Shown piece by piece: positions 26,307 through 62,383 of a stretch of 64,000 bases of DNA; position 1 is the first letter of the stretch; each line of letters begins with the position of its first letter. The translations under genes and the position numbers were made by a program. Location: the IMG/VR virus record IMGVR_UViG_3300025652_000032, positions 32,001-96,000 of that record; one strand, given 5' to 3'. Origin of the DNA: a virus. The notes beneath the pieces are model-generated. The model ran no database searches, was not told the origin of the DNA, and worked only from the letters and a program-made list of their open reading frames with translations.

Positions 26307-27788
26307 TCAGTCAGCAGCGTATACTGAACCGTCACCAAGGCCATGCAGGTTATCTACACGGAAGATTCGGTAATACTGGTTGATACGAACCGAACTGCTC
26401 GGATCTGCGTTCGAGACGAACGGGTTGTTTACCAGTCCGTAACGAGTCTTAAATCCGATCTTCGGCTGGAAGGAGTTCTCACCAACCGCACGAACCATCT
26501 GGAGTGGAACGTATGGGCAGTAGAACATACCAGCATCGTAAGGTGAAGTACCTCTGTAACCGACTGCAACGAAGTTCTTCGAAACAGAGTCAGTACCTGC
26601 ACCTGCGTATGGATCGACGTAAACCTTCATCTTACCGTTGAGGACACCAGCGAAAGTGCTGGCAGTGTCATCGACGTTAAGGTTGACGTTGAGAGCAGGT
26701 GAGATGTTGAGGAATCCACCCATTGCGAGGGCAGAAGCAACGTCTGCGGAACAGACGATGAAGTTACCCTTACCGCGTCGAGTTTCCTTAGCGATTACGT
26801 TTGCTTCACGTTCGATCTGGAACATGAGTCCACGGAATCTTTCAGCACTCCAACGACCGTCGGAGTCAGCATCTAAGTCGTAGATACCACCGAATGCAGC
26901 GGTCGCACCTGCGTGTCCAACGAGGTTAGCAGCAGTAATACCTACGGTCTTACTACGAAGATCGAGGTGCTGGGCACCAAGTTTCGCCTGACGATAGATG
27001 GTTCGAACGACTTCGCGGTTGATTTCAGCAAGGATTTCCGTGCTGAGAATGTTTGCGAGTTCAGTCTCTGCATCTAAACCGTGAACCGCCTTGAGATCCT
27101 GAGCGAGTTCAGTGGTGTACTCTGCCTTGAGGGCGCGAGTCTTAGCAACAACCGATGTTCTCTCGATAGAGAATGCCATCTCGTTGAATGCTTGTCCACT
27201 TGTACCGAGGTTTTCTGCTTCGGTAGTTGTCATTCCAGTACCAGCGTCAAGACCAGTTGCTGGAACGGTAGTTGCACTGTCACCAACACCATAACCCAGA
27301 AGTGGGTCAGCAGTGATACCACTGGTAACAATACCTGCGTGGCCAGCAGTGAGTCCTGCGAACTTGGTTGCTGGTTCGTTGAAGAGTGCCTCTTCACCGC
27401 TCTGATTGATGTACTTGCTCTTCATTGCAAAGATAAGTCCGGTAGGACCTGTCATTGGTTGCACACCACAGATGTCGTATGCCATCAGGTTGGGCATAGC
27501 ACGACGAACGAGAGAGATAAGAATTGGATCGTATCCCTGCATGTTCGAGTTACTGTTGTTTGCAGCAAGACCAAGACCACCTTGGCTAGCGTTAGCAGGT
27601 GCTTCCGAGATGAACTCTCGTCCCTCGGCATGTGCCTGTTCACGAAGAGCATTCTCTTCGTTCTCAAGAAGAATCGCAGTTACGTTCCTCTTATAGTTGT
27701 CGTCGATCGACGGAAGATCTGAATGTTCAAGAAGTGGTTTCCACTTCGAGGTTAATTCGTCTACATTGAATGTGTTATTCGGGTCCAT
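26307..27788 (-). CDS. gp23: Major capsid protein
   Basis: DPILISLVRRAMPNLMAYDICGVQPMTGPTGLIFAM, LKAEYTTELAQDLKAVHGLDAE, FYCPYVPL. Confidence 0.99.
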   Translation of the reverse strand: MDPNNTFNVDELTSKWKPLLEHSDLPSIDDNYKRNVTAILLENEENALREQAHAEGREFISEAPANASQGGLGLAANNSNSNMQGYDPILISLVRRAMPNLMAYDICGVQPMTGPTGLIFAMKSKYINQSGEEALFNEPATKFAGLTAGHAGIVTSGITADPLLGYGVGDSATTVPATGLDAGTGMTTTEAENLGTSGQAFNEMAFSIERTSVVAKTRALKAEYTTELAQDLKAVHGLDAETELANILSTEILAEINREVVRTIYRQAKLGAQHLDLRSKTVGITAANLVGHAGATAAFGGIYDLDADSDGRWSAERFRGLMFQIEREANVIAKETRRGKGNFIVCSADVASALAMGGFLNISPALNVNLNVDDTASTFAGVLNGKMKVYVDPYAGAGTDSVSKNFVAVGYRGTSPYDAGMFYCPYVPLQMVRAVGENSFQPKIGFKTRYGLVNNPFVSNADPSSSVRINQYYRIFRVDNLHGLGDGSVYAAD

Positions 27789-27824
27789 TGTTGTGTTCTC
27801 CTTGTTTCCTTTTAAACACTTTTT

Positions 27825-27832
27825 TATTTATG
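27825..27832 (-). promoter_or_regulatory. Late promoter CATAAATA upstream of gp23
   Basis: One mismatch to TATAAATA, intergenic. Confidence 0.7.
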
Positions 27833-27843
27833 TTTGAGTAAAT

Positions 27844-29100: not shown

Positions 29101-29131
29101 TTAAAATGCTCCTTTATTTGTTACTACGACC

Positions 29132-29139
29132 TATTTATA
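29132..29139 (-). promoter_or_regulatory. T4 late promoter TATAAATA
   Basis: Exact consensus upstream of gp22. Confidence 0.85.
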
Positions 29140-29150
29140 TATTTGGGGTT

Positions 29151-29792
29151 TTAGAGTCTACTTAAAAAGTCCTTGAATGCGTTTAGTTTTGTTTCATTGA
29201 GTTCGGCAGAAGATGCTGAACTAATCATCTTCTGATAACTGTCGATAACCTGTTCTCTCATGAGTCCGTTATCCCAAACCCATTGCTTACCTTCCATGAT
29301 TCCGTTAACGAAAGCATCTGGTGCAGATGGGTCTGCCACAATGTCTACAGCAGATAACATGAAGTCCTTCTGAACTTCATTAACTCCGCCTCTTTCTTTC
29401 AAGGTTCCCATACCACGAGACGATACACCTAACTTTGCTCCCTCATCCATCAGATTTTTTACGATCTTTCCGTATGGGGTTTCTAGGATTTTCGCCTTAC
29501 CAATGATATTGTCATTTTCTTCACGAAGGTCGTTGATGATGTGGGACACACGTTCCAGATTGACCGTCGGTCCTTCTGGATGCCCTAATTCACCCATTGC
29601 TCGATTCTTCTGTACATACTCTTTATTATATCGCCTTACTTCATCAAGAAGAGTCTTCTTGGGATATACTCTTCCGTTGCGATTTTTCTTTTCTGCCTGC
29701 ATGAAGATGCCTTCAATGAAGTATTGCTTCTCTCCATTTTTCTCTTCAGTCAGAAATCTAACGTCTTCAGTTGTCTCGGTGATAAGAAACAT
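29151..29792 (-). CDS. gp21: Prohead protease
   Basis: GIFMQAEKKNRNGRVYP, GELGHP, GVSSRGMG, DIVADPSAPDAFV. Confidence 0.98.
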   Translation of the reverse strand: MFLITETTEDVRFLTEEKNGEKQYFIEGIFMQAEKKNRNGRVYPKKTLLDEVRRYNKEYVQKNRAMGELGHPEGPTVNLERVSHIINDLREENDNIIGKAKILETPYGKIVKNLMDEGAKLGVSSRGMGTLKERGGVNEVQKDFMLSAVDIVADPSAPDAFVNGIMEGKQWVWDNGLMREQVIDSYQKMISSASSAELNETKLNAFKDFLSRL

Positions 29793-30361: not shown

Positions 30362-30402
30362 TTGGTGGTCCTTTTCGTGTATTTAATCTACCTAGTATAT
30401 AG

Positions 30403-32143: not shown

Positions 32144-32167
32144 TATGTAATATCCTTACTTGAATTA

Positions 32168-32734: not shown

Positions 32735-32774
32735 TTATTGTTTCTCCTGAAAGTGTTTTTATTACTTTATATGT

Positions 32775-32809: not shown

Positions 32810-34834
32810 TTATCCTAGACCAACTTCGTCGAAATCGATACCAGATCGAGTTGCAATGAAGTTCAACTGAATGTAGTTGATCGATCTTGCTGGTTTAACG
32901 AAGATGTCTGCAACAAATTCATTTCTATCAATCACTTCGCCAGTGTTGTTTGTTTCGTCACATACAACTCTGAAGTCAGTGATACCTCTTCTACCTTGAA
33001 CTGTTCTGAGGAACGGAACAACCAAGTTTCTGAACTGCGCCCTTGTGAACTCATCGTTGAGTTCGAAGAGTTGGAACTTAGATGCAGAAGCGATTGCTTT
33101 CTCAAGAACAATGAACAATCTACGAACATTGATTCTATCGAAGGCACTTGCCTTAGTCTGCATTGTCTTATCACCAAACAGGACTGTTCCCTGTCCGGGG
33201 AATGACACAACTGGGTTGATGTTATTCTTATACAGTTCATCTCTGTGTGTCTTCGATGGGTTGAACCCGAGTCGGACTACACCACGGAGTTGTCCACGGT
33301 TAAATCCTGCTGGAGAGAACCATGCATCTGCAATCTCTTCTGTTCGTGCTGCAAGTCCGGCAATATCACCGTTTAGCGGAACGTGTCGAAGAACATCGTT
33401 GTAACGGTCAAGCATGACTTTCACGTTACCATCAATTACTGCATAAGAACTGTCCTTGTTGAGAGTGTCTCTCTTGTAGTCAACAACTGATTTAGTTGCT
33501 TCCTCGGCAGTCTTGTTCTTAAGATCTGCAACCGGGGGTGAGATGAATGCAACACAGTCCTTTCTCTTATCACAGAGATCGACGAGAAGTCCGTCTTTGA
33601 CTGCATTACCAGGTCCACCAAGAATGAGAGAAACATCAACTGTTTCTGGATCCTCGAACTGATCGTAACCATCGGTGTATAGTGCAGCAGCAGAAACACC
33701 TGATACCTGTCCTGCACCACCTGAAAGTGCCTTGTAGAACATATTGTCGAAACCTGTTCTAGCATCACCATTGGAGAGGAGAGCGAAATCTGTAGTTAAT
33801 CCTCCAGCACTATCAATACCAGTGAAGTCTGCTTTTCCGTAAACGTAGTCTGATCTATCGTTGACAGCGTTCTTCCAGAAAATTGAGTTTCCGTCTCCGT
33901 CCTTAGCATCTCTTGCCTTAGAAACACCTTCGAACTTCTCAAGGATTGCGCCCTTGACTCCAGTAAACAAACCATCTTCATCGACGATTGCGATGTTTAG
34001 TTCGTCACCAGATCCACCACGGAAATCTACATTAGTAGATGTGGTTGGTGTATTAACAAAGTCCTTTGCATACTTGTTGAAGATCTTGAGCGATGTACCA
34101 CTCGAAGTTGCTTGTGTAATTGCTGCATTAAGTGGTGGGAAAATTTCAATGTGTGAAAGTTCACTAACACCACCTACGGCGGCACCAGATCCTAACGTAG
34201 ATCCAGTAGAACCGTATCGAACAGTAAACTCTTCTGCATCAGCAGCACCACTCACACCAACAACGGTGTGTTCTCTTCTGTCATTAAACTTTAAGATGTC
34301 GCCCTTGTGTAGTTTAATATCACCACAGACACCTGTTACCGCCGCACCACTTGCTTTGAGTACCACAAAGTTTGAGTTGAGTCCAGCAGTCAGTCCGTGA
34401 AGACCGTTCGTAGAACCATCTCCATCAAAAACGTGGACTGCAATCGAGTTACCTCGTATACCGGGATACTTAGCAATGAATTGTGCGCCGGCCTGACCTC
34501 CGCCAGCATCAAACTCTCTGCGGTTTGCAACCTGCACTTGTGAACTTGACTCGGTATCTGCGTTCAACCATGTGCTATCAACTGCTCGAACGATCTGAAG
34601 GTTATTTCCATAACCTAAAAAGTTGGCAGCAGTGAACCAATATTCGTAGTTATCCTCATCTGGATCACCGAAGATCCGACGAAGAGTGTTCTCGCTATCA
34701 ATTAAAATTCTTGTTTTGGCAGGGCCCCATGCGAATGGAGCAGCGAATCCAGCAGCGGTTGTTGAAACTGCTGGTACGATCTGCGAAAGATCTTTTTCTG
34801 TGACGTTAACGCCTGGACTTACTTGGAATCCCAT
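32810..34834 (-). CDS. gp18: Tail sheath protein
   Basis: FQVSPGVNVTEKD, WFSPAGFNRG, GDKT, FDRINVRRLF, RGITDFRVVCDETNN, KPARSINYIQLNF. Confidence 0.99.
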   Translation of the reverse strand: MGFQVSPGVNVTEKDLSQIVPAVSTTAAGFAAPFAWGPAKTRILIDSENTLRRIFGDPDEDNYEYWFTAANFLGYGNNLQIVRAVDSTWLNADTESSSQVQVANRREFDAGGGQAGAQFIAKYPGIRGNSIAVHVFDGDGSTNGLHGLTAGLNSNFVVLKASGAAVTGVCGDIKLHKGDILKFNDRREHTVVGVSGAADAEEFTVRYGSTGSTLGSGAAVGGVSELSHIEIFPPLNAAITQATSSGTSLKIFNKYAKDFVNTPTTSTNVDFRGGSGDELNIAIVDEDGLFTGVKGAILEKFEGVSKARDAKDGDGNSIFWKNAVNDRSDYVYGKADFTGIDSAGGLTTDFALLSNGDARTGFDNMFYKALSGGAGQVSGVSAAALYTDGYDQFEDPETVDVSLILGGPGNAVKDGLLVDLCDKRKDCVAFISPPVADLKNKTAEEATKSVVDYKRDTLNKDSSYAVIDGNVKVMLDRYNDVLRHVPLNGDIAGLAARTEEIADAWFSPAGFNRGQLRGVVRLGFNPSKTHRDELYKNNINPVVSFPGQGTVLFGDKTMQTKASAFDRINVRRLFIVLEKAIASASKFQLFELNDEFTRAQFRNLVVPFLRTVQGRRGITDFRVVCDETNNTGEVIDRNEFVADIFVKPARSINYIQLNFIATRSGIDFDEVGLG

Positions 34835-37018: not shown

Positions 37019-37867
37019 TCAATATGTATTACCTTGCGAGTCGATCGGTGGTCCAGCAGTCGATCCGGTTGCACCGAAGACATAGATGTTGGTTTCTGCT
37101 GTATACCCAGTGACAGTACCTGTTGCACCAGAAAGTCCGACATCAACGCGGGACAACGCACCTGTCGCGCCCTGAGAGGTTGCCCCAGTGGGTCCGTAAA
37201 TCCAATCGTTTAGTCCATCGTTGAAGAATACAGTCTTTGTTTGTCGGATAACCGAAGAGTTCTTCGTTGGACCAAAGCAGAAAGATTTTGCTGTGAAGTC
37301 GAAGTTTATCTGGATGTTTCTTCTCGAATCAAAATCACCCTCGTAGTCCTCGACAATAGACACATTATTGAGAATAATAGGAACATCTAATTTGTCATAT
37401 AAATCTGTGAAGTTGATTGAGACTGTAAACTCTGGAGTAAAGTAAGGCAGAATCTGTTCCATGATCTGCAAACCATCATCCATGTTTCGTGTAAACGCAG
37501 AGACAGCAAAGTTAAAGTTATATGGAACTTCCGCAAACGCATAATCGAGAGTAGATCCGGCACCAGTTTGAGTTGACTGTCTGCTCTTCGATAATGTGTT
37601 TCTTTTCCGTGTTGGATCATATGATACATCAGTGATCTCAAATCCAATTCTTGGTAAAGTGATTTCCGCCTTAGCAGAATCGCTCAAAGAATTGAAGTTG
37701 TTTAGTCGTGTGAGAAATTTTTCCTTTGGTCCGTATGATAAAGGAACCCGGATACGTTCTACTTCTGCACCTGAAGAATCACTCCGTGCAATAACAATGT
37801 CATTGAATAACGATCCGAACGCCACTACGGTTTTTCTTACGGAACTATTATAGAAATGTGTAAACAT
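37019..37867 (-). CDS. gp15: Tail terminator / sheath stabiliser
   Basis: VVAFGSLFNDI, VPLSYGPKEKF, LPRIGFEI, QILPYFTPEF. Confidence 0.95.
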   Translation of the reverse strand: MFTHFYNSSVRKTVVAFGSLFNDIVIARSDSSGAEVERIRVPLSYGPKEKFLTRLNNFNSLSDSAKAEITLPRIGFEITDVSYDPTRKRNTLSKSRQSTQTGAGSTLDYAFAEVPYNFNFAVSAFTRNMDDGLQIMEQILPYFTPEFTVSINFTDLYDKLDVPIILNNVSIVEDYEGDFDSRRNIQINFDFTAKSFCFGPTKNSSVIRQTKTVFFNDGLNDWIYGPTGATSQGATGALSRVDVGLSGATGTVTGYTAETNIYVFGATGSTAGPPIDSQGNTY

Positions 37868-39944: not shown

Positions 39945-42011
39945 TCATTTTGTACTAAATCCATAACCACTACCAGTAGAAGTTGCAGGTATAAGTGATA
40001 CATATGTGCCTTTACTCAGGACTAGTTCTGTTCCGTTTGCAAGGGTAGTTACTCTTGCATCAAGAATTGTTTTGCCGTCTGTAAGTGCTGTTATGATATT
40101 AATTTTGTCTACTCCTGACTTCTCTTCTGATTCGTTCCGTCTTTTATATTCTGTAAGATCTCCCCAGAGACGGATGACTTCTGTTCCTGTAAACTTAACG
40201 GGATCACCTTCTGCATTTTCGATAGAGTATGAACCACAAGATCCACTCGAAGTTCCTGCATTAATCGAAGTAACCAATTCACCCAATGGGCCCATTGCTT
40301 CTGGTCTAGGAACAAACGAGAATGAACCACCACCTGTTGATCCCGTGTGTGTTTCACCGGCGGGACCAAAGTATCCTGTCGTGCCACTAAATCCACCACA
40401 AGAACCATCCCCAAAGAATAATGTACAAAACCCATTATCCGAAGATCCGGTAGGACCTGGGTTGTGTGTCTGTCCATAAATTCTTGCGTATGTAAGATCT
40501 TCTGTATCAGACTCTAGTGTATTTCTAATGATACCTTGGTATGTGCTGATATCCACTATGTCAAGACCACCACTTCCTCCAGCACCAGAGTTTCCTCCTG
40601 TTGATTGTACTGCATAGTGAGCAGCACATGACATTCCCGTAATGAATCCACCGCCGATAGTTGGATAATCATAACCACCAGTTCCGGTTGTGTTTCTCAA
40701 GAACAATCTCTTCTTGGTAGTATTCCAGATAGTAACGATACCTTCATAGAACTCTCTATTGTTCAAATGTGGATTATTACCAGACTGAACATCAAACAAT
40801 GAACACCCAGATGTTCCTCTTGATGGAATGTAATATGCATATCCTGGTCGCCAAATTTCGTCACCAAGGCCTGTTGTCGCTCCCGTAAGAGCAGTACCCT
40901 TTTGGTATGTCGTATTGAGAATCGCAGCACTTGCTCCAGCAGTTAATACTGTTCCGGATGTACAACCAATCACAAATTCATCTATAAATCCACCCCAGTT
41001 GTCACGATGATCGTCTGATCCGTTTGGATCGAACTTACCACCAAACACAAACGGGTGTGGGTTTAACTTGATACCACCACCGTTTGTTGATTGGTTTACA
41101 GTTCGCACTCCGTTGACGTATGCTGTGACGGTTGATCCTGCGGCAGAGTTTCTGTACGCTACTGCAATATGATGCCACTTTTGAAATGGAATGTTCGCAC
41201 CACTTGTTGGTCCTGTTGCATTGTTTGTCACTGTGGTGATTGTTACATTATTCACCAATCCGGTGACTGATGTATCAGCAGCATCAGACCAATGGAATTT
41301 AACGGATGATCCTTCTTGATTGAGCAAGAAACAGTCACCACTACCACCAGTAAAACCTCCAGTTGGTCCTGTTGTTCCGCTTTCTGGTCCAGTGTATCCC
41401 TGAGTGGCCGAGGTATCAAGTTTTGCCAAGATCGTACCATTAGGTAAACTCGGGGATTGGAACCAAACCCACCCACTAAGTAACCAGTTGTCTAGGGTTG
41501 ATCCGTTATGACCACCTCTGGATGGAAGGACTATTTGTCCACCGTTTCCGGAAAAGTAAATACTTTCTTTTGCACAACTAAGTGTAACACCATTCCATTT
41601 GCCCTGCGATCCAGAAGATGGTTGACCATACTCCGGTTTGAATGTTCTTGGCGGAAATTCGAGGACTCTCGATCTGGTGTGGGCCCGAATCTTGTCAAGT
41701 TCTACTCGTTCGTCGTGAGAAAATTCACCACACCCAACTATTGCATTGTAATACCAACCATCGTCACCACAACCACCAGAGGAAGCAGATCGCTGTGCTG
41801 GAATTTTAACTGTTCCTCTGGGATCGAATCCTTGAACTTCCTCGTTGTTTGTGTTTAGTTTGTCGAACAACTCCTTATCCATAGTGAAAATCTCATACGC
41901 TCCTTTGGAACGATAGCGTGATGAATTATCATTTTCTTTTAATATGTCTACGATTCTACCATCTGTAGAATCGATGACTATTTGGATTTTGGTGTTGTTG
42001 GTTATCGACAT
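39945..42011 (-). CDS. Virion protein with LamG/concanavalin-like lectin domain
   Basis: KWHHIAVAY...AYVNG...FVFGG...GFIDEFVI; rich in G-x-T/S/C motifs. Confidence 0.75.
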   Translation of the reverse strand: MSITNNTKIQIVIDSTDGRIVDILKENDNSSRYRSKGAYEIFTMDKELFDKLNTNNEEVQGFDPRGTVKIPAQRSASSGGCGDDGWYYNAIVGCGEFSHDERVELDKIRAHTRSRVLEFPPRTFKPEYGQPSSGSQGKWNGVTLSCAKESIYFSGNGGQIVLPSRGGHNGSTLDNWLLSGWVWFQSPSLPNGTILAKLDTSATQGYTGPESGTTGPTGGFTGGSGDCFLLNQEGSSVKFHWSDAADTSVTGLVNNVTITTVTNNATGPTSGANIPFQKWHHIAVAYRNSAAGSTVTAYVNGVRTVNQSTNGGGIKLNPHPFVFGGKFDPNGSDDHRDNWGGFIDEFVIGCTSGTVLTAGASAAILNTTYQKGTALTGATTGLGDEIWRPGYAYYIPSRGTSGCSLFDVQSGNNPHLNNREFYEGIVTIWNTTKKRLFLRNTTGTGGYDYPTIGGGFITGMSCAAHYAVQSTGGNSGAGGSGGLDIVDISTYQGIIRNTLESDTEDLTYARIYGQTHNPGPTGSSDNGFCTLFFGDGSCGGFSGTTGYFGPAGETHTGSTGGGSFSFVPRPEAMGPLGELVTSINAGTSSGSCGSYSIENAEGDPVKFTGTEVIRLWGDLTEYKRRNESEEKSGVDKINIITALTDGKTILDARVTTLANGTELVLSKGTYVSLIPATSTGSGYGFSTK

Positions 42012-45000: not shown

Positions 45001-45064
45001 TAGTATCCACCAAGTTAATTGGTAGTTGTCCCTGCGGTATTCTAATTGCACTTTGATCAGCCAT
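42026..45064 (-). CDS. Beta-helix (pectin-lyase-like) virion protein with large Cys/Asp/Pro-rich insertion
   Basis: YCSPNGSDTTGDGS...NPY N-terminus, repeated xxAxNNSxI rungs on both sides of a 44-Cys segment. Confidence 0.7.
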   Translation of the reverse strand: MADQSAIRIPQGQLPINLVDTTMYLYCSPNGSDTTGDGSITNPYFHPSRALEDLKRLFFTETGNAIIECASGTYNYEYPIIIDNQTKKKISIKGSSGVSFKLQEVTSYKYDAQENIEGNGYGVGSLVDNRITVKLASTENLSSPPTSPILPTTAGVEVGDYILFRDQTSGSQRYYPTGKDGSLGSEGLTGPNPGDARTNVLGCYEIIAVNTTDNTVTFRSRGKNFLHKVAKSQITNSGDISVNDDIYVGGYKSFNNSETGDPTGKYGTLATTGIDTSIGTVVSDHAISAKVMKSIFRFKRSDAHGRRHATKGLVLKPNSSLHGISNLVFQGDVRFKHFNEMDPAASNGEAILAFKNSSIGNGVCDNIGISGWYAGVAAHTNSTINLDGLAISDCSFGVVAENNSTVSCKNGTITGCDVVGIVANNNSIIRTTNTTVGSGGYSPLTIDLDNVGSDASELMSGDYLSINLDDGVSVTTKCVWNSFKDPYNRMIDPVFDLYNYYPLNTGNQIYLQSIWPVVGLGFRDVSTNESSPNRIISSGGFLYGVGQGVLPENSLASTYEPDGECNSADEDLAGGVCYPPGFFGDPFDFISTGDGGFFGPGDLFCTNCVNCTDCENGCASSGGICENFCCSNCSDYACDPANGCDGGDCDDDEDDVDPPDNPGDGDPPVDDPCDDEPCQSGCAPDPGDGDFCSWCVQCGNPDDCFCTCNPGDPCCADPDGCECTGEDGTCCGVDCTQAIDCQGSGCCCDATDTDGKPCFCKNDENTCSGFGTPCEGIPGLFQECTNCPDGECICPPGTDNEFTCTRPCNNVEPPDETTYRLVDHPMGIGFLSHNNSSIDAPRCYVSLLRNGGFVAMENSLIDANLSFVRGCAGPGFLSRENSSINARNSSAQRTRGGYTARQNSNIQAQMAYATDNAEYNFIARNDSIINCEKATSAISRTISSGTTVATITTANQIYAGMSTAHGQSNLGSFINKTGIIELEVGNVTPNNADDWAVDSTSHIEPPTTSGAS

Positions 45065-46319: not shown

Positions 46320-49300
46320 TCAGAAAGTCGAAAGTGCTACTCGTTTCCATGTGTCGCCTTCTACACAAACATAGAGATGTGTTGTACTCCATGCAATGTC
46401 TCCCGTATTACCCGAAGCAGAGGAAGAAGCAGGAACAAGAGGTCCGGTTCCACCGGATCCTTCATCAGAACCCAAACGGAATCGTCCGAGATTATCTATA
46501 CTTGCTCTTTCAATACCATCTGTGGTGAAAGACATTTTGTTTGTGCTATGTTCGTATTTAATCTGTCCTTCGTCTACGTCACCCGCAGAGTTATGGAATC
46601 GAACAGCACCAGTCTTGTTACCGAGTGATCTAATTTCAACAACAGGATCACCCGTACCATGACATACGATCTTAGTATCCGAACCATAAACGTAGAGGTT
46701 CGAGGCAACAGATGCATCCGTGTCCATACAACCAGAACCGATTGCAAGTCTACCTTCGAACGAACCCGTGCCACCGAAACTAATTCCGGTTGAGGTTGCT
46801 GTGATTCCGTGTGACTTCAGTGAACCTGAAACATCAAGTGATGCTCCGGGTGCTGCGATACCGATACCAACATCACCGTCCATGTATGCGATATCTGGTG
46901 CAGATGTTTGCCATTGGGAGAATGTCACACCGTGGAATGTTGTACCAGATGCACTATCATTTACCAGTGCTACCGTTGCAGTCGTTCCTGCAACTGGTCT
47001 ACCAGCGGGAAGTGTGTATCCATTTGTTCCGTTGTTTGTTACTTCTACAGAAACACTCTTGAAAGATCCCCGGACATCAAGAGAAGCACCGGGTGCCGTT
47101 GTACCAATGCCGACCATGTGATCAGCAGATGCACCCATCGAGGTTCCAACTGTAAGAACGGGCAGGTTATCATTACCAGTAAAGACAAATCCTTCACCGG
47201 AAACTCCCTTAATTCTCATGAAGTTTTGTGTTGTGGTATCTTCGTAAATTCTAACTTGTGCTGTGATCCCGTCGAGGCGAATACCTTCCGAATCACCACC
47301 AGCAGTTCCGCCGATGTGTAATCTGGACTGGGGATCTGCGTTATTGATTCCGAGGTGTCCACCAGTACCGAGACGCATTCTTTCTGTTCCGGTTACGTCC
47401 AACGTACTCTGGGAAGCAGCAAAGATAAGATCTTCACCGCTATTTGGTCTGAGATCTCGAATCAGTGGTTTGTAATCGTAGTATCCATCGTCGGAGTCTG
47501 TGTCGTAGATGAGAATATCACCATCAGAAACTCCAGTGTCGTACACGTTTGTAAGTTCACCGGCAGTCAGTGCTACATCAAGTCCATTGATGAGCGATGC
47601 TTTTGCTGCTGATGTGAGTTTGATGATGTAGTTCACAACACCGTATGGTTGCATGTTGTTGTGACTGATACTCTCTCCTGTGTTATCCAATCCAAGATTA
47701 TCGAAGGATGATGTGATTGATCCTTCGATTGGAATACTGCCAGTTCCGTCTTCAGTTTGAAGATTCAGAGATCCTGCACTGAATGATGCATTACCGATGA
47801 TATCGAGTTCACCTATATCTGAATTCAGTGGGGTCTCGTTACCATTACTGAAAAGATCCTGAATGGGCGCGTTCGGGATTGGGACACTGGAAGTAAATCT
47901 ATATCCACTTCGATCTTCTCCAGAGAAACGAGTTCTCGCCATATTCCGTTGATTACCGCTACCACATTCACCACACACGACATAGTTATCGATCACGCCG
48001 CTGGGGGTATTGGGTCTACCAACAAAGATACCATCTGTCTGTCCGTATTGTGGAGTGAAAAATTGACTATCATCATTACTAGACGAAAGCGAATGTCCAA
48101 CAACGTGAATGTGCTGCGGAACTCTCAGTCCGGTTGAGTTTACTTGCCCAGTTCCTGCAATCAAAATATCTCCAATATTCATTGCAAGATTTGCTTCGAT
48201 GTTTAATGAAGATGTGTCTGAAATTGCATGGGTGTGAACTGGAAGTTCTTGTACAGTAAGTTGGTGAATCTCTTCTCCACCTTCCTGTCCCAAGTTATAG
48301 TCGTAAAGTGTATTTGTAGAACCGGCCCTCGTTCCGATGATGGTCCTACCACGAAGATCTGGTTTGTTAAACTCTGTTACTTCTTGACTAGCAGCATAGA
48401 AAACTGTGCTGATATCAGAACCAATGTTTATGTTGTTTGCTGAAATGATAGAGAGACTTGCGTGTTCAACACCTGTGCTATCTGTATCTTCTAGTGCTGG
48501 AAATCTAAGAACTGGTTCGTGAGGAATCAATACCGTTCCACCAGCACCTTGAATCTGTTTAGTAAGATGATCAACTTCTACTGTTAGAATATTTTGTGAA
48601 TCGTCCCAGGCCCTAATCGTTCCAGTAACTGTAACCGATTCCCCAAGATCACCACCGATGGAGTCGTAGATAAACGATGAAGATACTCTACCACCCACTA
48701 CTGAGTAGGCAGATAAATCTACACCAATTCCATCTCTTCTACCAATTCGAATTCTTTGTACGAATCCGTATCGTTGTCCTATTCGGGAAAATAGTTCTGG
48801 ATATGATGATGTGACTAATGAATCACCATCACACAAACTCCACCCATCTGGAACATCACTCTGTGTTCCTGCGTATGGTGCAATCACACCGGCCGGTTGA
48901 ATACCTTCGAGACTTACTGTTGCTTCACCACCAATAAGTGTACCGATATAATTTGTTACCAATCCTTTACCCTGCTCAGTTCTTGTGAGCATCGGTTTGA
49001 TGACCGTACCACCGGCGGTTGGTGGTGATTCGATCAATTCACCGGCAGTCGTATCCGAAAGGAAGTAGACTACCTTCGACTCATCATCCATATTCGCCAT
49101 ACTTGATAGATCAATTTCACCCTGATATACAAGAGTAAACTGACTCGTACTGATTACCTTTTCTACAACACCAGATACTTCTGCGTTGACAGCAGAATTT
49201 GCTTGTGCGCCTGTAAACCCAGAGGTGGCAGTATCCCAACGAACAACACTACCTGCAACAAATCCGTGTGTTGCTTGGGTTATATTGTTCCGGATGGACT

Positions 49301-49346
49301 TTCCATCTGCGGATGCTGTTTGTAATTTGAATGCACTATATGCCAC
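46320..49346 (-). CDS. Tail fibre protein with tail-collar domain
   Basis: PAGVIAPYAG...PDGWSLCDG, PDLRGR, GGEEIHQLTVQELPVHTH, HNNMQPYGVVNYIIK, GIGxxAPGASLDV repeats. Confidence 0.85.
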   Translation of the reverse strand: MAYSAFKLQTASADGKSIRNNITQATHGFVAGSVVRWDTATSGFTGAQANSAVNAEVSGVVEKVISTSQFTLVYQGEIDLSSMANMDDESKVVYFLSDTTAGELIESPPTAGGTVIKPMLTRTEQGKGLVTNYIGTLIGGEATVSLEGIQPAGVIAPYAGTQSDVPDGWSLCDGDSLVTSSYPELFSRIGQRYGFVQRIRIGRRDGIGVDLSAYSVVGGRVSSSFIYDSIGGDLGESVTVTGTIRAWDDSQNILTVEVDHLTKQIQGAGGTVLIPHEPVLRFPALEDTDSTGVEHASLSIISANNINIGSDISTVFYAASQEVTEFNKPDLRGRTIIGTRAGSTNTLYDYNLGQEGGEEIHQLTVQELPVHTHAISDTSSLNIEANLAMNIGDILIAGTGQVNSTGLRVPQHIHVVGHSLSSSNDDSQFFTPQYGQTDGIFVGRPNTPSGVIDNYVVCGECGSGNQRNMARTRFSGEDRSGYRFTSSVPIPNAPIQDLFSNGNETPLNSDIGELDIIGNASFSAGSLNLQTEDGTGSIPIEGSITSSFDNLGLDNTGESISHNNMQPYGVVNYIIKLTSAAKASLINGLDVALTAGELTNVYDTGVSDGDILIYDTDSDDGYYDYKPLIRDLRPNSGEDLIFAASQSTLDVTGTERMRLGTGGHLGINNADPQSRLHIGGTAGGDSEGIRLDGITAQVRIYEDTTTQNFMRIKGVSGEGFVFTGNDNLPVLTVGTSMGASADHMVGIGTTAPGASLDVRGSFKSVSVEVTNNGTNGYTLPAGRPVAGTTATVALVNDSASGTTFHGVTFSQWQTSAPDIAYMDGDVGIGIAAPGASLDVSGSLKSHGITATSTGISFGGTGSFEGRLAIGSGCMDTDASVASNLYVYGSDTKIVCHGTGDPVVEIRSLGNKTGAVRFHNSAGDVDEGQIKYEHSTNKMSFTTDGIERASIDNLGRFRLGSDEGSGGTGPLVPASSSASGNTGDIAWSTTHLYVCVEGDTWKRVALSTF

Positions 49347-49368: not shown

Positions 49369-52300
49369 CTATTTAGTAATATCATTCTTGAGTTCTGCAT
49401 CGAATTCGTATTCAGCAAGGTATGCTCGATCTCCAATACCATTCGAGATAGTTCCACTGAATTGTCTAGAAGGCATAAAACCCCTCTTTGTCAGGACTTG
49501 AGTACCACCATAGGCGAATGTCATGTCATCAACACTGGCGGAACCGAATCCGTTATCCTCGCCGCCGAACAGGATTTCGGTTGCTTTGACACAAGTTGGG
49601 TTGATTCTCATTGGAACAGGGAAACTTGTATATGTTCCGTATGTACCGGCAGCAGATCCATTGGAATTGAATTCGGAACCGATCGCTCCATTCCATCCAC
49701 CCTGTGCAATCTGATAATACTTCTGACATGCTTCGAGATCGATTTCAGAAATTGGTGTCTGGAAGTTGGTTGCTTGCTGTCCGTGTTCTACCTGAACCTG
49801 TGCGAGTGATAAGATACCATCATATGTCAGTCCGGTGGCAAATCCTGCGAGCGTTGCTCCATTTGAATCTGTAAACGATGCATTATTGTCATTCGAGAAC
49901 GTAGTCCATCGAACATCAAGGAAGGATGAATCACCCAACGTGGTTCCTTGTGGGAATGCTGGAAGTGAAACAGTATGAACATACTTGTTCCAATCCGTAC
50001 TCACCGAAATATCATCCACATGAATCGTGTGTGCGTCTGCACTGTTTCCGAGTGCTTGATAATCCTGCGAAACCGACAGTCGGACTGTATCCCCGACCGT
50101 TCCCTTAGCAAAGTAACTAATGGTTATATCTTTGTTTGCAAATCTACGGACGTTTTCAATTCTTTGTCCAACGGAAACAGTAGACTTGTTTGAATTTCCG
50201 TAGTTTGCATCTATCTTTCCTTGGAAGTTTAGATAGTGTTTTGGATATCCCGGAACTGTGGTTTGTGAGTGATTAAATGTTCCTTGAGACATTCCACCAA
50301 TAATATTAGAAGAAGATCCCGATGATGTTAAATCTGGAATTACTTCTGCATTAAATCTATCTGCATGGAATGTATCATACTTAGATCCGTCAGATAAGAA
50401 GTCCGTGCTTAAAGTTGTTGGAGCAGTACCTCTCTGCCAGTGATCGAAGTTACTGTTGATGATGAGGTTTCTTCCCTGTCGTCCAACAACAGGAGGAAGA
50501 ACTTGACCTGGATCATCGATGAAGTATCCGAGGACTTCGACTTGCAAACTAATCACTGAAGTATATGATGGTACACCATTGTCAGTATTATGTGGGTTTC
50601 CGAAGGAGACCGCCAATTGTCCGTTTGGATTTGAATTTTCAATTGGGATAATCTTTGTAAAGGTTTGTCCTTCTACATTAAAATCGGCCATACCCGCATC
50701 ACGAACTGACATGGTTGATACGTTATCAGTCGTTTCAAAATTGTTTGGGAAGTTTGCGTTGGGTACACCACAATAAATTTCTTCTTGACGACCAGCACCT
50801 CTGTGCTTGGCATTAACTTTCACCATCATGTGCGTAGCATTTGTCGGTGGTGTTATCTTTGTGAAGTAGTCGCTGATGCTTGTCCATGCGGCCGTATTGT
50901 TTGTGTATGAGTATGCAACTCGGTTCGCTTCCGCTGCGTTATCGCTAGATTCTGTTGATTGACTGAAGAACAATCTGAATTTTTCATATCCCGTGATATT
51001 TGAATCATACGGAGATGGATTTGTTCCTGATGCTCGGAATGGCAGAGGAGCAGTTTGTGTTGCCTGTTTAATCATCACCTTAGTGGTTCTTTGTCCCTCG
51101 GTTGGGAAGAACGTCTTACCAGTTAAGACTGCGGGTTCGACCCCATCATCGTTACTACCTCCACCAGTTGGAGGTGCAACATTTTCGGTAATTCGTCTAC
51201 CGACATAACTGAGAACCAAACCCTTTGAAGGACTGGTGGCAATGAACATCGGTTTCTTAACCATGTTAATTGTTCTTGGATATTCAAGTCCCAGACTACT
51301 GTTTGAACTTCCAGCAGTATTTGGTGTCAGGAAGTAAACCCGTCCAGTTTCGAAGGGGGTTCGATCAACCGAAGTCATATCAATGTCAATCCAACCGGAG
51401 TTCGTTATGTAGAATGCATCAGATGAACCAGATGCGGGTGTAACAACCTCGCTGATAATTCCCTGAGTTTCTGCACTTACTTCAGTGTTTGCCTGTGCTT
51501 TTTGATAAGTACCAAATGGTTGTGCTGAGTTTGTTGTTCCAGCATCAAACCTCACGACATCACCAATAGTTAATCCGTGATTCTCTTGGTTGACTAGGAG
51601 TCTGTTTCCTTGTGCAACCACACCAGTCTCAATCGACTCTGCGATCTCACCACCGATGTAACTCACAACGAATCCTGTGTCACCAGTGATACCAATCATC
51701 ATTGGTTTTCTTACGAAACCAACCTGAGAATCTACTGGTGCATTTTGTGAAAGCATACCCGTGCTACCAGATGATAGGAAGTATGCTTTACCAATTTCTA
51801 AGGTAAACCCAGCAGTAACATTATCAATAATGTTGCTGAAGTCTCCTTTGACTTCACCTTGGAAAGTAATATCGAATGTTGTGTCGTTAATAACCTCAGA
51901 AACAATACCAACTGCTTCTGCTTGTTCTTTATTTGCGGCGAATGCAGCAGTAAACCCATTTGCAGTAGGTCTTACCGGCATACCAAAAGAAAGGCCGTGT
52001 GCGGATGATGTAACTACTCTCTTCTTGTTTATTCCGTGATGGAAGTTGGCAAAACCATCTTCTGAAATTTCTGCAACTTCGACTGGTGTTGACAATGTTG
52101 TATTGTCGTAACGAAGAGTTACGCTTCTGTGGTCTCTTGTTACACCACCTGCGGTAGTGTATCCGGGATTGGCAGTGAATCCCATAAGTAACGATTCGCA
52201 AGATGATCCGCCAGCAAAGTGAATATTACCGGCGGTTCCTGTTACAAGACCCCATCCATCACCGAACTGAATGTTCGCGTTTGTTGTCCATGCTCCAGTC

Positions 52301-52749
52301 TTACCACAGACACCAATCTGTTGTGGTTTCCACAACCAACCAGCACTCGGTCCATCTGTTCTAGCAATTACAATACCACCACCACCAGATGCCAAGATTC
52401 CGCTGTCTCCACAGACACCGTTCAATCCATCTTCGTTTGTTCCACCCAGAATTAAGTTATAGTCTGCAACCGTTACGTTTGTTGAATGTAAGGTTGTCAT
52501 TTGACCTAAGACAGTTACATCAGAACCAAACGTAACACCCTTAAGAACATGACCAGAGTGTTCAATTTGAAATTCACCGGCAGTGTTAACACCGACAGAA
52601 ATACCATCACCAGAGATTCCGGTGTATAGTTTTAGTCTGTTGAGTTTATCGATGATATCTTCATTGGTGATTCGTCTCCACTCTTGGAAGGTATCACCCA
52701 GAGAAACATCTGCAATTTCGTATGTATTAAACTGTGGTCCGGTAGACAT
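49369..52749 (-). CDS. Tail fibre / baseplate-attached structural protein
   Basis: gp9/10-like N-terminus (DTFQEWRRITN), two HGLxxG...AxAN...A.G repeats, C-terminal RNLIINSNF..WQRG domain. Confidence 0.75.
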   Translation of the reverse strand: MSTGPQFNTYEIADVSLGDTFQEWRRITNEDIIDKLNRLKLYTGISGDGISVGVNTAGEFQIEHSGHVLKGVTFGSDVTVLGQMTTLHSTNVTVADYNLILGGTNEDGLNGVCGDSGILASGGGGIVIARTDGPSAGWLWKPQQIGVCGKTGAWTTNANIQFGDGWGLVTGTAGNIHFAGGSSCESLLMGFTANPGYTTAGGVTRDHRSVTLRYDNTTLSTPVEVAEISEDGFANFHHGINKKRVVTSSAHGLSFGMPVRPTANGFTAAFAANKEQAEAVGIVSEVINDTTFDITFQGEVKGDFSNIIDNVTAGFTLEIGKAYFLSSGSTGMLSQNAPVDSQVGFVRKPMMIGITGDTGFVVSYIGGEIAESIETGVVAQGNRLLVNQENHGLTIGDVVRFDAGTTNSAQPFGTYQKAQANTEVSAETQGIISEVVTPASGSSDAFYITNSGWIDIDMTSVDRTPFETGRVYFLTPNTAGSSNSSLGLEYPRTINMVKKPMFIATSPSKGLVLSYVGRRITENVAPPTGGGSNDDGVEPAVLTGKTFFPTEGQRTTKVMIKQATQTAPLPFRASGTNPSPYDSNITGYEKFRLFFSQSTESSDNAAEANRVAYSYTNNTAAWTSISDYFTKITPPTNATHMMVKVNAKHRGAGRQEEIYCGVPNANFPNNFETTDNVSTMSVRDAGMADFNVEGQTFTKIIPIENSNPNGQLAVSFGNPHNTDNGVPSYTSVISLQVEVLGYFIDDPGQVLPPVVGRQGRNLIINSNFDHWQRGTAPTTLSTDFLSDGSKYDTFHADRFNAEVIPDLTSSGSSSNIIGGMSQGTFNHSQTTVPGYPKHYLNFQGKIDANYGNSNKSTVSVGQRIENVRRFANKDITISYFAKGTVGDTVRLSVSQDYQALGNSADAHTIHVDDISVSTDWNKYVHTVSLPAFPQGTTLGDSSFLDVRWTTFSNDNNASFTDSNGATLAGFATGLTYDGILSLAQVQVEHGQQATNFQTPISEIDLEACQKYYQIAQGGWNGAIGSEFNSNGSAAGTYGTYTSFPVPMRINPTCVKATEILFGGEDNGFGSASVDDMTFAYGGTQVLTKRGFMPSRQFSGTISNGIGDRAYLAEYEFDAELKNDITK
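49370..49376 (-). promoter_or_regulatory. Late-promoter-like element CTAAATA
   Basis: ACTAAATAG across the last codons and stop of the upstream gene. Confidence 0.55.
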
Positions 52750-58160: not shown

Positions 58161-58173
58161 TTATTTGTCCACC

Positions 58174-60522: not shown

Positions 60523-60523
60523 A

Positions 60524-62383
60524 CTAGTATATATCTCCGCCGGTCGGTCCAACATTGTTGACATCGAGTAGCATAAAGTTATGCAGTGTTATTCCATCGA
60601 ATGAAATACCAGCAGGTATTGTGGTTATACCACGCACATTCGGATGGAAGTAGATCGAGAAATATGTAATACCCAAATACTTGGCAGCAGTATATCCACC
60701 ATCAATCGGAGTTCCATATCCGTGAGTTGCTCCACTGCTACCAAGAGGTCGCTCTAGAGGATCGTGACTTGTAATTCCACCCTCTGGCATGGTTACAAAA
60801 GTAATTCCATGCACTCCCGGATTAAATACACTCCCATCCGGTCCTGTTGCTGCGAAGGGATTATATCCAAGCGGATACACATCTCCAGTGGCACCTCGGG
60901 TTGATTTATAAACAACCCCATTGTTTCTTAAGTTCAATGTCGTGCCAGGAGTGTATGGTGTGTAATGTCCAATGATTGGATACTCTTGGATCTTGCTTAT
61001 GTTAAGATCTTGAGATTCGTTTCTTTGAAGAACACGGGTGAGAGCAATTTCACCAAACACTTTCATGCCTGCTGGGTGAATAAGTTTCTTGATGGTTTCT
61101 TTAAATTTGCTTAGTGTGACTTCTGATCTTAACACATATGAATGCACCTGATAATAATCATTATCCTGCATCACTTTATTAGAACTGACTTTACCTTTGT
61201 TCCCATCATAGTAACCCGGTTTTCGATTGACTGCCTTTGGGATAAGAGATCCGTATGCAGAACCATCTCCGGTTTTACTTCTCACGGTAAATGGAACTGG
61301 TTCGCTGTAAAAAATACCACCATCCGTAATGTGTATCTCTAAGATCTCGCCCTGTAATCCAACCTGAGAAACATATCCTGCCGCACCGGCGCCGGGTGTT
61401 CCCCAAATTTCACCGATGGGAATAGATGGGTCTTGTTCGTAAATACCGAATGAACAACAAGGCGCACAACCGAAATCGATCTGTGGATATACCAAGACAT
61501 CATCACTTCCTGTTCTATACCGATTCAGTACAATTGGATCGCCGATTCGGTAGTTGAATCCGGGACTGGTGATACGAACTTCGGATAAAATACCATATGT
61601 GTTTTCATAAACTTCGCCAGTCGTACCACCGACATCGCAAAATGCAGGTCGGCCGGGGACAAATGTTCCATTGATTTCTTTGAGAGAAAACTCTGCTATA
61701 GAAGCACCACGAACACTGTATTGTATTGCAGAATCTACTGTGGCGTATGCCGTGATTGTCTTGTTATATGGATCTTTCTGTCTCAGTTTCTTATTAACAA
61801 AATTGAATATATCATTACCACAAAATGCTGATGTTTTAATTACATCTGGACTATTCCACCTACCATCAGATAGACGAAGCATGTCTTCTTCTGGATAATA
61901 GAATTCAAGAACACTGTTATAAATTATTCGGAACAAAAACTCAAACGCCTTTTCAGTTCCTTTGAGTTTGTAAAATTCTTTTATATTTTTTATTACGGAT
62001 TGTACATTCAGTGGAGTTACACCGTCGTCTGCTATTGCTAGTTCTGTTGGGAAATTCAGAAGATATGTGTTTCTAAATTGCGACACAAAACTGTCGATCG
62101 TTGTATCTACATCCGACACACTAGTCAGTCTACTGACAGCACCGACAGAATTATCATTCTGTTCCACCCATTCATAATATGCTTCGAGAAACGAAACAAA
62201 CATAGGGTAGTCAGAACGAACAAAATCTGGTAATTGGGATTCAATGAAGGGCGAGATACGAAAAAGAATCGACTCTTGTTCGGGAGTCAATTCAGCAAGA
62301 ACCTGAGAGATATCCGATGGTTGAATATCAATGAAGGACTTTAACTTGAATAATAGGGGTAAACTATTATAGTCGTTAGACAT
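60524..62383 (-). CDS. gp7: Baseplate wedge initiator (gp7-like)
   Basis: LPDFVRSDYPMFVSFLEAYYEW, FYKLKGT, YQVHSYVL, IHPAGMKVFGE. Confidence 0.8.
   Translation of the reverse strand: MSNDYNSLPLLFKLKSFIDIQPSDISQVLAELTPEQESILFRISPFIESQLPDFVRSDYPMFVSFLEAYYEWVEQNDNSVGAVSRLTSVSDVDTTIDSFVSQFRNTYLLNFPTELAIADDGVTPLNVQSVIKNIKEFYKLKGTEKAFEFLFRIIYNSVLEFYYPEEDMLRLSDGRWNSPDVIKTSAFCGNDIFNFVNKKLRQKDPYNKTITAYATVDSAIQYSVRGASIAEFSLKEINGTFVPGRPAFCDVGGTTGEVYENTYGILSEVRITSPGFNYRIGDPIVLNRYRTGSDDVLVYPQIDFGCAPCCSFGIYEQDPSIPIGEIWGTPGAGAAGYVSQVGLQGEILEIHITDGGIFYSEPVPFTVRSKTGDGSAYGSLIPKAVNRKPGYYDGNKGKVSSNKVMQDNDYYQVHSYVLRSEVTLSKFKETIKKLIHPAGMKVFGEIALTRVLQRNESQDLNISKIQEYPIIGHYTPYTPGTTLNLRNNGVVYKSTRGATGDVYPLGYNPFAATGPDGSVFNPGVHGITFVTMPEGGITSHDPLERPLGSSGATHGYGTPIDGGYTAAKYLGITYFSIYFHPNVRGITTIPAGISFDGITLHNFMLLDVNNVGPTGGDIY

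Follow-up and report, generated by a model that had tools for sequence, protein, structure and literature searches.

Why do the surface proteins of a T4-like phage carry so many short Gly-x-Thr motifs, and are these connected with the glycosyltransferase genes of the same genome? The question is raised by a stretch of 64,000 nucleotides (hereafter the window) that spans bases 32001-96000 of a 128,029-bp virus genome, IMG/VR record IMGVR_UViG_3300025652_000032. A sequence-only reading of the window had proposed that G-x-[TSC] (Gly, any residue, then Thr, Ser or Cys) is a glycosylation sequon that saturates the loops and tails of the outer virion proteins and is served by a nearby island of sugar-enzyme genes. 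We find that the motif has to be restated as G-x-Thr-[Gly/Ala], with Ser a weaker variant and Cys not specific; that it is enriched in this phage and its relatives and not in other T4-like phages; and that the genome encodes an enzyme with the predicted fold of a protein glycosyltransferase. A glycosylation sequon is a plausible explanation of the motif. We put at roughly 45% the probability that G-x-Thr-[Gly/Ala], with Ser in a minor role, is the acceptor-site footprint of a phage-encoded cytoplasmic protein O-glycosyltransferase.

Pfam hits of the window proteins identify the virus as a T4-like myovirus, and all long open reading frames (ORFs) of the window lie on the minus strand. The closest catalogued phages are Synechococcus phages S-SCSM1 and S-SKS1, Methylophilales phage Melnitz and Pelagibacter phages HTVC008M and Mosig, with at most 57% identity in the major capsid protein gp23; the closest IMG/VR contigs reach at most 64%. 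Within the phage group analysed below, gp23 identity is 59-64%, compared with 55-57% to marine outgroup phages, and T4 is more distant. Coordinates are those of the window unless marked as genome positions.

A threonine-specific motif and its placement

The hand counts behind the sequence-only reading were accurate. G-x-[TSC] occurs exactly 34 times in a 688-aa virion protein with a laminin G domain (the LamG protein, 39945-42011; Pfam Laminin_G_3 over residues 236-348), four times in gp46, and 1, 2 and 0 times in gp22, gp21 and gp19, and all the tetrapeptides it quoted are present. We compared such counts with composition-preserving shuffles of each protein, either global or within blocks of 12, 20 or 30 residues, which allow for locally Gly/Thr-rich composition. 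By this measure, the motif as first written is barely above expectation; virion proteins hold 242 occurrences vs 197-206 expected (global, 30-aa-block and 12-aa-block shuffles; 1.2x, z about 3), a ratio like that of the non-virion proteins (67 vs 54 expected; 1.25x). The claimed contrast in density between virion and non-virion proteins is present, but it mostly reflects Gly/Thr/Ser composition rather than order, since the ratio is equal in both sets and virion proteins contain about twice as much Gly (9.8% vs about 5%).

The four-residue form G-x-[TSC]-[GA], on the other hand, stands well above all three shuffle types in virion proteins (80 vs 34-41; z 6.4-7.6) and is scarce, as had been claimed for the internal and non-virion proteins, elsewhere (5 vs 5.2 expected). 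The excess is essentially that of G-x-Thr-Gly/Ala, and control patterns of the same composition, with another order or another third residue, stay near 1 in this phage. Counted per protein, the LamG protein has 16 sites vs 4.6 expected (its 34 three-residue matches compare with 22.5), the tail sheath stabiliser gp15 (37019-37867; Pfam T4-gp15_tss over residues 4-217) 7 vs 0.6, gp23 (26307-27788; Pfam) 7 vs 1.4, the tail sheath gp18 (32810-34834; Pfam) 6 vs 1.9, and a gp7-like baseplate wedge protein (60524-62383) 5 vs 1.2, with G-x-T alone at 13 vs 4.1. A 1008-aa tail-collar-domain fibre protein (46320-49346) has 12 vs 5.2, and a 1126-aa fibre or baseplate protein (49369-52749) has 12 vs 4.5, two GVCG among them. 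In the rest of the genome, a 311-aa gp53-like baseplate wedge protein (genome 120314-121249; L090:5314-6249) is among the most motif-enriched of all, with 7 sites vs 1.1.

Two simpler sources of the excess were considered and rejected. A DNA-level cause fails because the codons at the motif vary and no fixed DNA word underlies it; the mild preference for ACT at the motif Thr is a general bias for Thr before Gly/Ala, consistent with the avoidance of AGCT in this genome (see below). Paralogous repeats are not the main cause either, with just three weak domain matches (26-35% identity) among the fibres; the 1126-aa protein is a weak paralogue of the 1008-aa protein and of a 405-aa protein.

A motif picked by eye may also owe its statistics to chance or selective reading. 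When all three-residue patterns, gapped or not, were scanned blindly, G.TG ranked second (z 5.4) and G.TA fourth in this phage. Each comparison phage (T4, Melnitz and S-PM2) also has a pattern, unrelated to this one, at z 4.8-6.6, and the single-genome statistic alone is of moderate strength. What makes the signal convincing is its replication in relatives. Five long relatives (G001-G005) were analysed whole and, together with this phage, form a six-phage ingroup; the outgroup comprises seven T4-likes, three of them marine viruses derived from single amplified genomes (SAGs). The uniform test took in proteins whose Gly content is 7.5% or more and left out collagen runs. G.T[GA] stands at 2.0-3.6x (z 4.4-9.9) in the six ingroup phages and at 0.47-1.40x in the seven outgroup phages, which rules out a generic trait of T4-like virions; a first outgroup test, on the virion proteins of T4, HTVC008M, Melnitz and S-PM2, gave 0.86-1.10x.

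The motif is joint and order-dependent. Pooled over the ingroup, G.T[GA] occurs 305 times vs 120 expected (2.55x, z 16.5), compared with 0.91x for [^G].T[GA], 1.02x for G..T[GA], 1.00x for G[TSC].[GA] and 0.6-1.0x for the reversed order. It is also specific for a hydroxyl residue, Thr above all; with Ser in place of Thr the pooled ratio is 1.39x, with Val/Ile 0.8x and with Asn 0.74x. Cys variants of the tetrapeptide, although they number 7 vs 1.7-1.9 expected in this phage, are not part of the group signal, because G.C[GA] is enriched in the outgroup (2.26x) as much as in the ingroup (2.10x). The sequence-only reading had taken the interchange of Thr, Ser and Cys at position +2 as a sign that a nucleophilic side chain is conserved. 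That interchange does not hold up where Cys is concerned; the Thr preference, the weaker Ser and the depletion of Val/Ile agree with the idea, while its Cys part is not specific to the group.

When only conserved-core proteins are considered, the ratio is 2.21x in the ingroup vs 1.17x in the outgroup. This difference is due to gp15 (family pooled: ingroup 17 vs 3.4 expected, outgroup 0 vs 0.8) and gp18 (ingroup 17 vs 8.9, outgroup 7 vs 10.2), and neither group has an excess in the portal, the tube, gp3 or gp6. Chance is thus left with the unrelated patterns that turn up in every phage of the blind scan and with the meagre 1.2x of the loose motif; against it, a motif fixed in advance recurs in five more genomes, most of whose virion proteins cannot be aligned to those of this phage, and fails in seven outgroup genomes. 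This replication largely refutes a chance origin, which we consider scarcely credible, and the alignments argue against shared conserved sites as the source of the signal.

Alignments to T4, HTVC008M, Melnitz and S-PM2 place the sites mainly in lineage-specific or variable parts, namely the gp15 C-tail, the gp18 outer domains, the gp23 loops and the linkers of the fibres and the LamG protein. All seven gp15 sites lie beyond the T4-gp15_tss domain, in a 58-residue C-terminal tail (residues 225-282; 37022-37195) whose sites are all of the form G-x-[TS]-[GA] and which aligns to none of the four comparators; the gp15 tails of relatives G001 and G002 are likewise unalignable, yet rich in G-x-[ST]-G. 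All six gp18 sites fall within a variable region (residues 147-382). The LamG sites gather in linkers rich in Gly and Thr (residues 205-225 and 519-560), and the 1008-aa fibre protein has a run of G-[I/T/G/A/V]-[TS]-[AG] sites at residues 679-858. The motif is absent from the portal, the tube (gp19), gp3 and gp6. As a separate observation, the gp15 homologue of G003 forms the start of an ORF of ~1,350 aa with a very long C-terminal extension (contig positions 41718-45788; L103), which may reflect a fusion or an error of ORF calling.

One gp23 site, GPTG114, is shared by the marine comparators (T4 has SPTG) and is therefore structural. Of the remaining six gp23 sites, four (GLTA145, GITA157, GDSA169 and GTSG195) are in a variable segment (residues 128-200; 27189-27407) and two (GITA283 and GATA294) in a 28-residue insertion (residues 270-297; 26898-26981). 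As the AlphaFold2 (AF2) model of gp23 is poor, with a mean confidence score (pLDDT) of 55 and values below 50 in the insertion, exposure was judged by alignment to T4 and from the literature. Residues 11-127 and 185-469 align to residues 8-132 and 227-496 of T4 gp23 (phmmer), and the gap faces T4 residues 133-226; residues 128-184 thus stand in for the T4 insertion domain and its linkers. The insertion domain of T4 gp23 forms protrusions on the capsid surface (PMC9546572). The 28-residue insertion is missing in T4, HTVC008M, Melnitz and S-PM2, and many nearer IMG/VR homologues have one of variable length and sequence. Segment 128-200 is hypervariable among 80 homologues, which carry 1-7 motifs each (median 3), so that the seven of this phage are in the top 4%.

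The C-terminus of gp23 (26307-26345) shows a feature of its own, an extension of ~10 residues (…HGLGDGSVYAAD) past the end of close homologues (…NLHG); the gp23 of T4, HTVC008M, Melnitz and S-PM2 end two residues before that of the …NLHG homologues. The extension recalls the C-tails ending in GS reported as glycosylated in mycobacteriophage Che8 (see below), possibly by coincidence.

The glycosyltransferase, its collagen-like partner and the sugar island

A candidate enzyme for such a motif is encoded 1.6 kb past the window start, at genome 30390-31649 (minus strand; L087:18390-19649). This 419-aa protein combines a family 2 glycosyltransferase (GT2) domain with tetratricopeptide repeats (TPRs) (Pfam Glycos_transf_2 and TPR_16), and we call it GT2-TPR; its gene is followed by those of dCTP deaminase and DNA polymerase. 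Residues 193-251 match consensus TPR proteins. The AF2 model (pLDDT 92.6) mixes strands with helices up to about residue 176, beyond which it is an all-helical repeat. Leaving aside designed TPR proteins, the TPR-only TTC37/SKI3 and TPR-fusion constructs, the PDB entries that GT2-TPR matches in sequence are GmaR, ThuS (7MSK) and SunS. In a Foldseek search with the model, ranks 1-6 are ThuS and SunS (E about 1e-14 to 5e-13), and the next fold hits are seven orders of magnitude worse; the full-length entries (ranks 1-4) cover 404-411 of the 419 columns and a truncated SunS entry about 300. The DxD motif (D101-A-D103-D104) is invariant in 64 homologues. By its modelled fold class, GT2-TPR is thus a protein-type glycosyltransferase.

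The family is large, with 2,846 proteins at E <=1e-10 in marine metagenomes, and among catalogued phages its homologues are restricted to one jumbo phage and four huge uncultured phages, with none in any catalogued T4-like phage. The sole cultured-phage homologue (34% identity) belongs to the 309-kb jumbo Tunturiibacter phage Tunturi_5 (PP885688; L106), where it sits among nucleotide-metabolism genes and adjoins a nucleotidyltransferase, and no neighbouring collagen-like gene is annotated.

How does the presence of the enzyme relate to the motif? GT2-TPR and motif enrichment occur together in 4/4 ingroup members whose contigs cover the region, those of G004 and G005 ending before the glycosyltransferase region and so being uninformative on this point, and neither occurs in 7/7 outgroup phages.

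The gene neighbourhood of GT2-TPR suggests a protein substrate. Its recurrent neighbours are an epimerase, a collagen-like protein, a ~150-aa protein and dCTP deaminase. Among 80 viral loci sampled, 75 had room downstream of GT2-TPR, and in 53 of these a collagen-like ORF follows within 1.5 kb on the same strand, compared with 0/80 gp23-centred loci. The gene order is collagen - 148 aa - GT2-TPR - epimerase in G001 and epimerase - GT2-TPR - collagen in G003, while in this genome and its three closest relatives (L107-L109) the collagen gene is not directly beside it and lies 10.6 kb away or outside the flank. This genome has an 876-aa collagen-like protein (genome 17126-19756, minus strand, outside the window; L087:5126-7756; Pfam Collagen, 3.8e-17) that is built of GNT/GPT/GAT/GST/GPQ triplets, i.e. 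(G-x-T)n, with Thr at 13/15 Y positions of its first run; the protein has 42 motif hits where 9.2 are expected, and its G001 orthologue has Thr at 49 of about 75 Y positions. Adjoining it is a gene for a 154-aa Gly-rich protein without a Pfam match (genome 19753-20217), orthologues of which remain near GT2-TPR in relatives G001-G003.

This arrangement resembles that of SgtA from C. difficile, in which a GT-A domain is joined to TPRs and whose gene lies directly upstream of bclA3 (PMC7157674). SgtA adds beta-O-GlcNAc to the Thr of the Gly-Pro-Thr repeats of BclA3, accepts Ser, and needs no more than short linear peptides (PMC7157674). GT2-TPR likewise has an N-terminal GT-A domain and then C-terminal TPRs (Pfam and AF2 model). 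The enzyme-then-collagen gene order is found in the 53/75 loci and in G001 and G003, although not in this genome, and the collagen-like protein of this phage consists of Gly-x-Thr triplets where the SgtA acceptor is literally G-x-T-G. There are also differences. SgtA belongs to a bacterial spore-coat system, not to a phage, and the two are likened here by architecture and gene order rather than by direct sequence comparison; most phage partner collagens have Gln, Lys or Arg at Y; and the phage has a 13.6-kb island for a modified deoxy-amino sugar. We know of no SgtA acceptor sites beyond the collagen-like protein.

SunS and ThuS (7MSN, 7MSP and 7MSK) are the best structural matches of GT2-TPR and share with it a GT-A domain, a TPR-like helical domain and the DxD motif. 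SunS is prophage-encoded, and the substrates of glycocin glycosyltransferases are small disulfide-rich antimicrobial peptides whose genes lie next to the enzyme. Sequence matches to the pair have E values of 4.9e-6 to 8e-4. Identity is no more than 15-19%, and a difference in the angle between the domains keeps the full-length TM score at 0.54. Accounts of the SunS/ThuS-type glycocin glycosyltransferase family describe enzymes that modify a polypeptide at Cys, Ser or Thr (PMC12457901, PMC8620827, PMC6405829). Unlike these enzymes, GT2-TPR is partnered by a collagen-like protein and the Cys variant of the motif is not enzyme-specific; we saw no gene for a glycocin precursor, i.e. a small Cys-rich peptide, beside it in a search that took in ORFs above 60-80 aa. 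The idea that the island's enzymes have O- or S-linked acceptors therefore keeps its O-linked half, as the predicted protein-glycosyltransferase fold is present and relatives of the enzyme modify Ser, Thr or Cys, and loses the support of Cys. The GmaR match (22ao, E 5.6e-8) is confined to residues 3-58. Listeria GmaR is a cytoplasmic flagellin O-GlcNAc transferase, acting on Ser/Thr of a surface filament protein before export, and is also an anti-repressor and thermosensor; we know of no G-x-T consensus at its flagellin sites.

GT2-TPR forms the upstream end of a sugar-nucleotide and glycosyltransferase island (3-11966 of the window, minus strand; Pfam), which continues 1.6 kb upstream into the GT2-TPR gene, totals 13.6 kb and is located between regA and the dCTP deaminase/DNA polymerase genes. 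It holds epimerases/dehydratases, an FdtA-like isomerase, a DegT aminotransferase, three methyltransferases, a Polysacc_synt_2 protein, two GT2s and six unknowns. T4, HTVC008M, Melnitz and S-PM2 have no GT2 above the Pfam cut-off. One of the two GT2s, of 244 aa (8495-9229; Pfam Glycos_transf_2, 5.3e-17), is a full-length GT-A domain with weak PDB matches to heparosan synthase alone. PDB hits of the other, of 210 aa (GT2-210, 10628-11260), to RecA fusion chains were treated as spurious. A tblastn search of 50,697 catalogued phages returned GT2-210 homologues in 61 records, all actinobacteriophages (Mycobacterium and Gordonia), among them Che8, residues 1-183 of whose gp108 are 31.5% identical to GT2-210 (E 2.6e-19); there is no match to Che8 gp109 or gp110.

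Che8 virions are described as glycosylated, the phage's own glycosyltransferases decorating capsid and tail proteins, and the reported glycan positions are the C-termini of the capsid and tail-tube subunits (PMC11256854, PMC12619734). Homology of GT2-210 to the N-terminal domain of gp108 is the point of likeness. Che8 differs in being an actinobacterial siphovirus with neither a collagen-like partner nor a sugar-nucleotide island this large, and the motif sites here are in internal loops, the gp15 tail and the fibres, the gp19 tube having none. The collagen-like BclA of Bacillus anthracis offers another comparison; it is described as glycosylated, with a glycan that ends in a methylated 4-amino-4,6-dideoxy sugar (PMC6222408). 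In BclA, Gly-x-Thr repeats bear rhamnose-anthrose oligosaccharides. A glycosylated collagen-like surface filament is what the two cases would share, and a methylated sugar of the kind that ends the BclA glycan could be made by the island's dehydratase, aminotransferase and methyltransferase set. BclA is, however, a bacterial spore protein, and the sugar product of the island is deduced from its predicted enzymes only.

An island of this kind may also serve other ends. The LPS-type and glycosyltransferase genes of pelagimyophages have been proposed to modify the host O-chain and thereby block superinfection (PMC7029224), and 4,6-dehydratases, FdtA-like isomerases, DegT aminotransferases and Polysacc_synt_2 proteins are typical of O-antigen and capsule pathways. 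If the island modified the host surface in this way, the motif would be unrelated to it. The predicted fold of GT2-TPR is however that of a protein or peptide glycosyltransferase and not of a polysaccharide synthase, and its gene is paired with a collagen-like gene in 53/75 loci; we therefore find host-surface modification an improbable explanation. Glycosylation of phage DNA, which would likewise leave the motif unrelated, seems less probable still. Phage glycosyltransferases that hypermodify DNA are known, GT2-TPR here adjoins dCTP deaminase/dUTPase and DNA polymerase genes, and the Tunturi_5 homologue is surrounded by nucleotide-metabolism genes. The SunS/ThuS fold with a TPR substrate-binding domain and the pairing with collagen-like genes speak against it, as does the absence of a hydroxymethylase or TET-type enzyme from Pfam scans of the window and ten upstream genes, which found only ThyX and were not a dedicated whole-genome search.

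Glycan acceptor or recurrent turn

If the motif is an acceptor site, GT2-TPR would glycosylate Thr, and its primary substrate would be the 876-aa collagen-like fibre protein with its Gly-x-Thr triplets, in analogy to the beta-O-GlcNAc that SgtA places on the Gly-Pro-Thr Thr of BclA3. The island's remaining enzymes (dehydratases, ketoisomerase, aminotransferase, methyltransferases and two GT2s) would build and add a strain-variable modified deoxy-amino sugar. As short linear peptides are enough for SgtA, GT2-TPR could also modify brief G-x-T-[GA] stretches that lie in flexible, exposed regions of other virion proteins, and the sites in the gp15 tail, the gp18 outer domains, the gp23 surface loops and the fibre and LamG linkers would have been kept by selection for a glycan coat. 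We infer here both the presence of a glycan and the action of the enzyme on the Thr of G-x-T and on virion proteins other than the collagen-like one.

A different origin of the motif is suggested by its sequence context. In-register runs are over-represented (G.TG..G 4.3x, G.TG.TG 13.5x), and around isolated sites positions -2, +1 and +5 tend to be hydrophobic and +4 to be Ala/Ser, a context that looks like a strand-turn-strand element rather than a free loop. The signal may thus be a structural or evolutionary bias peculiar to this lineage, the sites themselves being unmodified. Fragments of collagen-like Gly-x-Thr, spread by slippage or by recombination with the collagen-like genes of these phages, would make up their variable loops, tails and fibres; tight turns capped by Thr (G-phi-T-[GA]-[AS]-phi) would also occur there, as part of a beta-rich fibre fold, and the enzyme would act on the collagen-like fibre alone or elsewhere. 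The strong excess of runs, the context of the isolated sites and the spacing in the 1008-aa fibre, where sites recur every 10-60 residues like rungs, all fit this account. Triplet runs nevertheless cover only about a quarter of the motif excess. Val and Ile, the usual strand substitutes for Thr, are depleted, and the excess is shared by sequences that are unrelated and cannot be aligned (gp15 tails from three phages, the outer domains of gp18 and the gp53-like protein), which is hard to reconcile with one fold. We take such a bias to be a serious possibility, though short of a probable one.

Several observations weigh against a glycan acceptor. Three of them also favour a structural bias, namely the unconserved site positions, the big exposed proteins that are free of the motif and the rarity of Thr at Y in the partner collagens. 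The motif Thr positions of gp23 are not conserved among the 80 homologues, and the gp23 family is alike in both groups (12/5.7 in the ingroup, 14/6.9 in the outgroup), so that the seven sites vs 1.4 in gp23, which had been named as a motif-rich protein, are real but their excess, once the family-conserved GPTG is set aside, is no larger than in phages without the enzyme. The same is true of gp14; it has a modest excess, alike in ingroup and outgroup and unremarkable taken by itself. For gp8, also listed as motif-rich, no enrichment over shuffles was found at all. The fibres and other large virion proteins are divided, the LamG, 1008-aa and 1126-aa proteins being enriched and the 1740-aa DUF4815 and 1012-aa proteins not. 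Large and presumably exposed proteins without enrichment comprise, besides gp8 and the DUF4815 protein, gp6 and upstream proteins of 1653, 1371 and 987 aa.

The enzyme side has its own difficulties. In this genome, GT2-TPR and the collagen-like gene are 10.6 kb apart. With all partner collagens pooled, Y is mostly Gln, Lys, Asp, Arg or Pro and Thr makes up 14%, so G-x-T cannot be the universal acceptor of the enzyme family. The Che8 capsid and tail-tube C-tails (…NKTGS and …YSDGS) are without G-x-T-[GA]. Among the six ingroup and seven outgroup genomes we found no ingroup phage that lacks the enzyme, no outgroup phage that has it and no independent gain or loss, and the correlation of enzyme and motif may thus rest on a single evolutionary origin. 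To these come the compositional nature of the three-residue motif and the lack of specificity of its Cys form.

The acceptor-site reading can be extended, tentatively, to a large and abundant group of uncultured marine T4-like phages in which a strain-variable O-glycan covers much of the virion exterior, attached by a cytoplasmic enzyme of the SgtA/SunS type at G-x-Thr-[Gly/Ala]. Collagen-like fibres, the neck (gp15), the sheath (gp18), capsid loops and tail fibres would be the coated parts, and the sugar would be a modified deoxy-amino sugar from the hypervariable island. To our knowledge, actinobacteriophages are so far the only phages whose own enzymes have been shown to glycosylate the virion, and there the modification shields virions from antibodies. 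If the extension is true, this would be the first virion glycosylation system, with its sequon, in phages of Gram-negative marine bacteria, and the 'LPS genes' of pelagic myoviruses, now read as modifiers of the host surface, would have to be re-read as virion-coat genes. Such a coat could alter how the phages adsorb, their host range, how readily they stick to marine particles, their decay and their recognition by grazers or hosts, and the motif could serve to pick out likely glycosylated virion proteins in metagenomes. If a structural bias is the right explanation instead, the motif would still be a clean case of a deep sequence signature that marks the surface proteins of one phage lineage.

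Other genes and sequence features

The window also encodes, by Pfam, gp22, gp21, gp20, gp19, gp17, gp16, gp14, gp8, gp6 and large fibre or baseplate proteins, as well as a replication and recombination block with UvsY, UvsW, gp46/47, gp44/62/45 and RegA. The 1012-aa virion protein (42026-45064) is rich in Cys (5.4% vs 0-1.5% in other virion proteins) and has no motif enrichment. Between gp44 and gp62 lies a gene for a Cpn10/GroES-like co-chaperonin (12828-13130; Pfam Cpn10, 7.6e-10), which corresponds in role to T4 gp31 but belongs to the cellular family. A 532-aa protein (16374-17972) has a weak C-terminal match to N6_N4 DNA methylases and a large N-terminal part without assignment; it is 66% identical to a protein of relative G001. 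Outside the window, between UvsX and DNA polymerase, a glutamine-synthetase-like gene (genome 25963-27069; L087:13963-15069) is possibly an auxiliary metabolic gene.

A scan for late promoters gave 4 occurrences of TATAAATA vs 2.1 expected, one of them within the sugar island, and was uninformative. The tetranucleotide AGCT does not occur once in the 128-kb genome (~474 expected), and AGCC and GGCT occur 7 times each, whereas GGCC is kept (146 occurrences). This scarcity of AGCT, AGCC and GGCT suggests avoidance of an AGCY-type restriction target.

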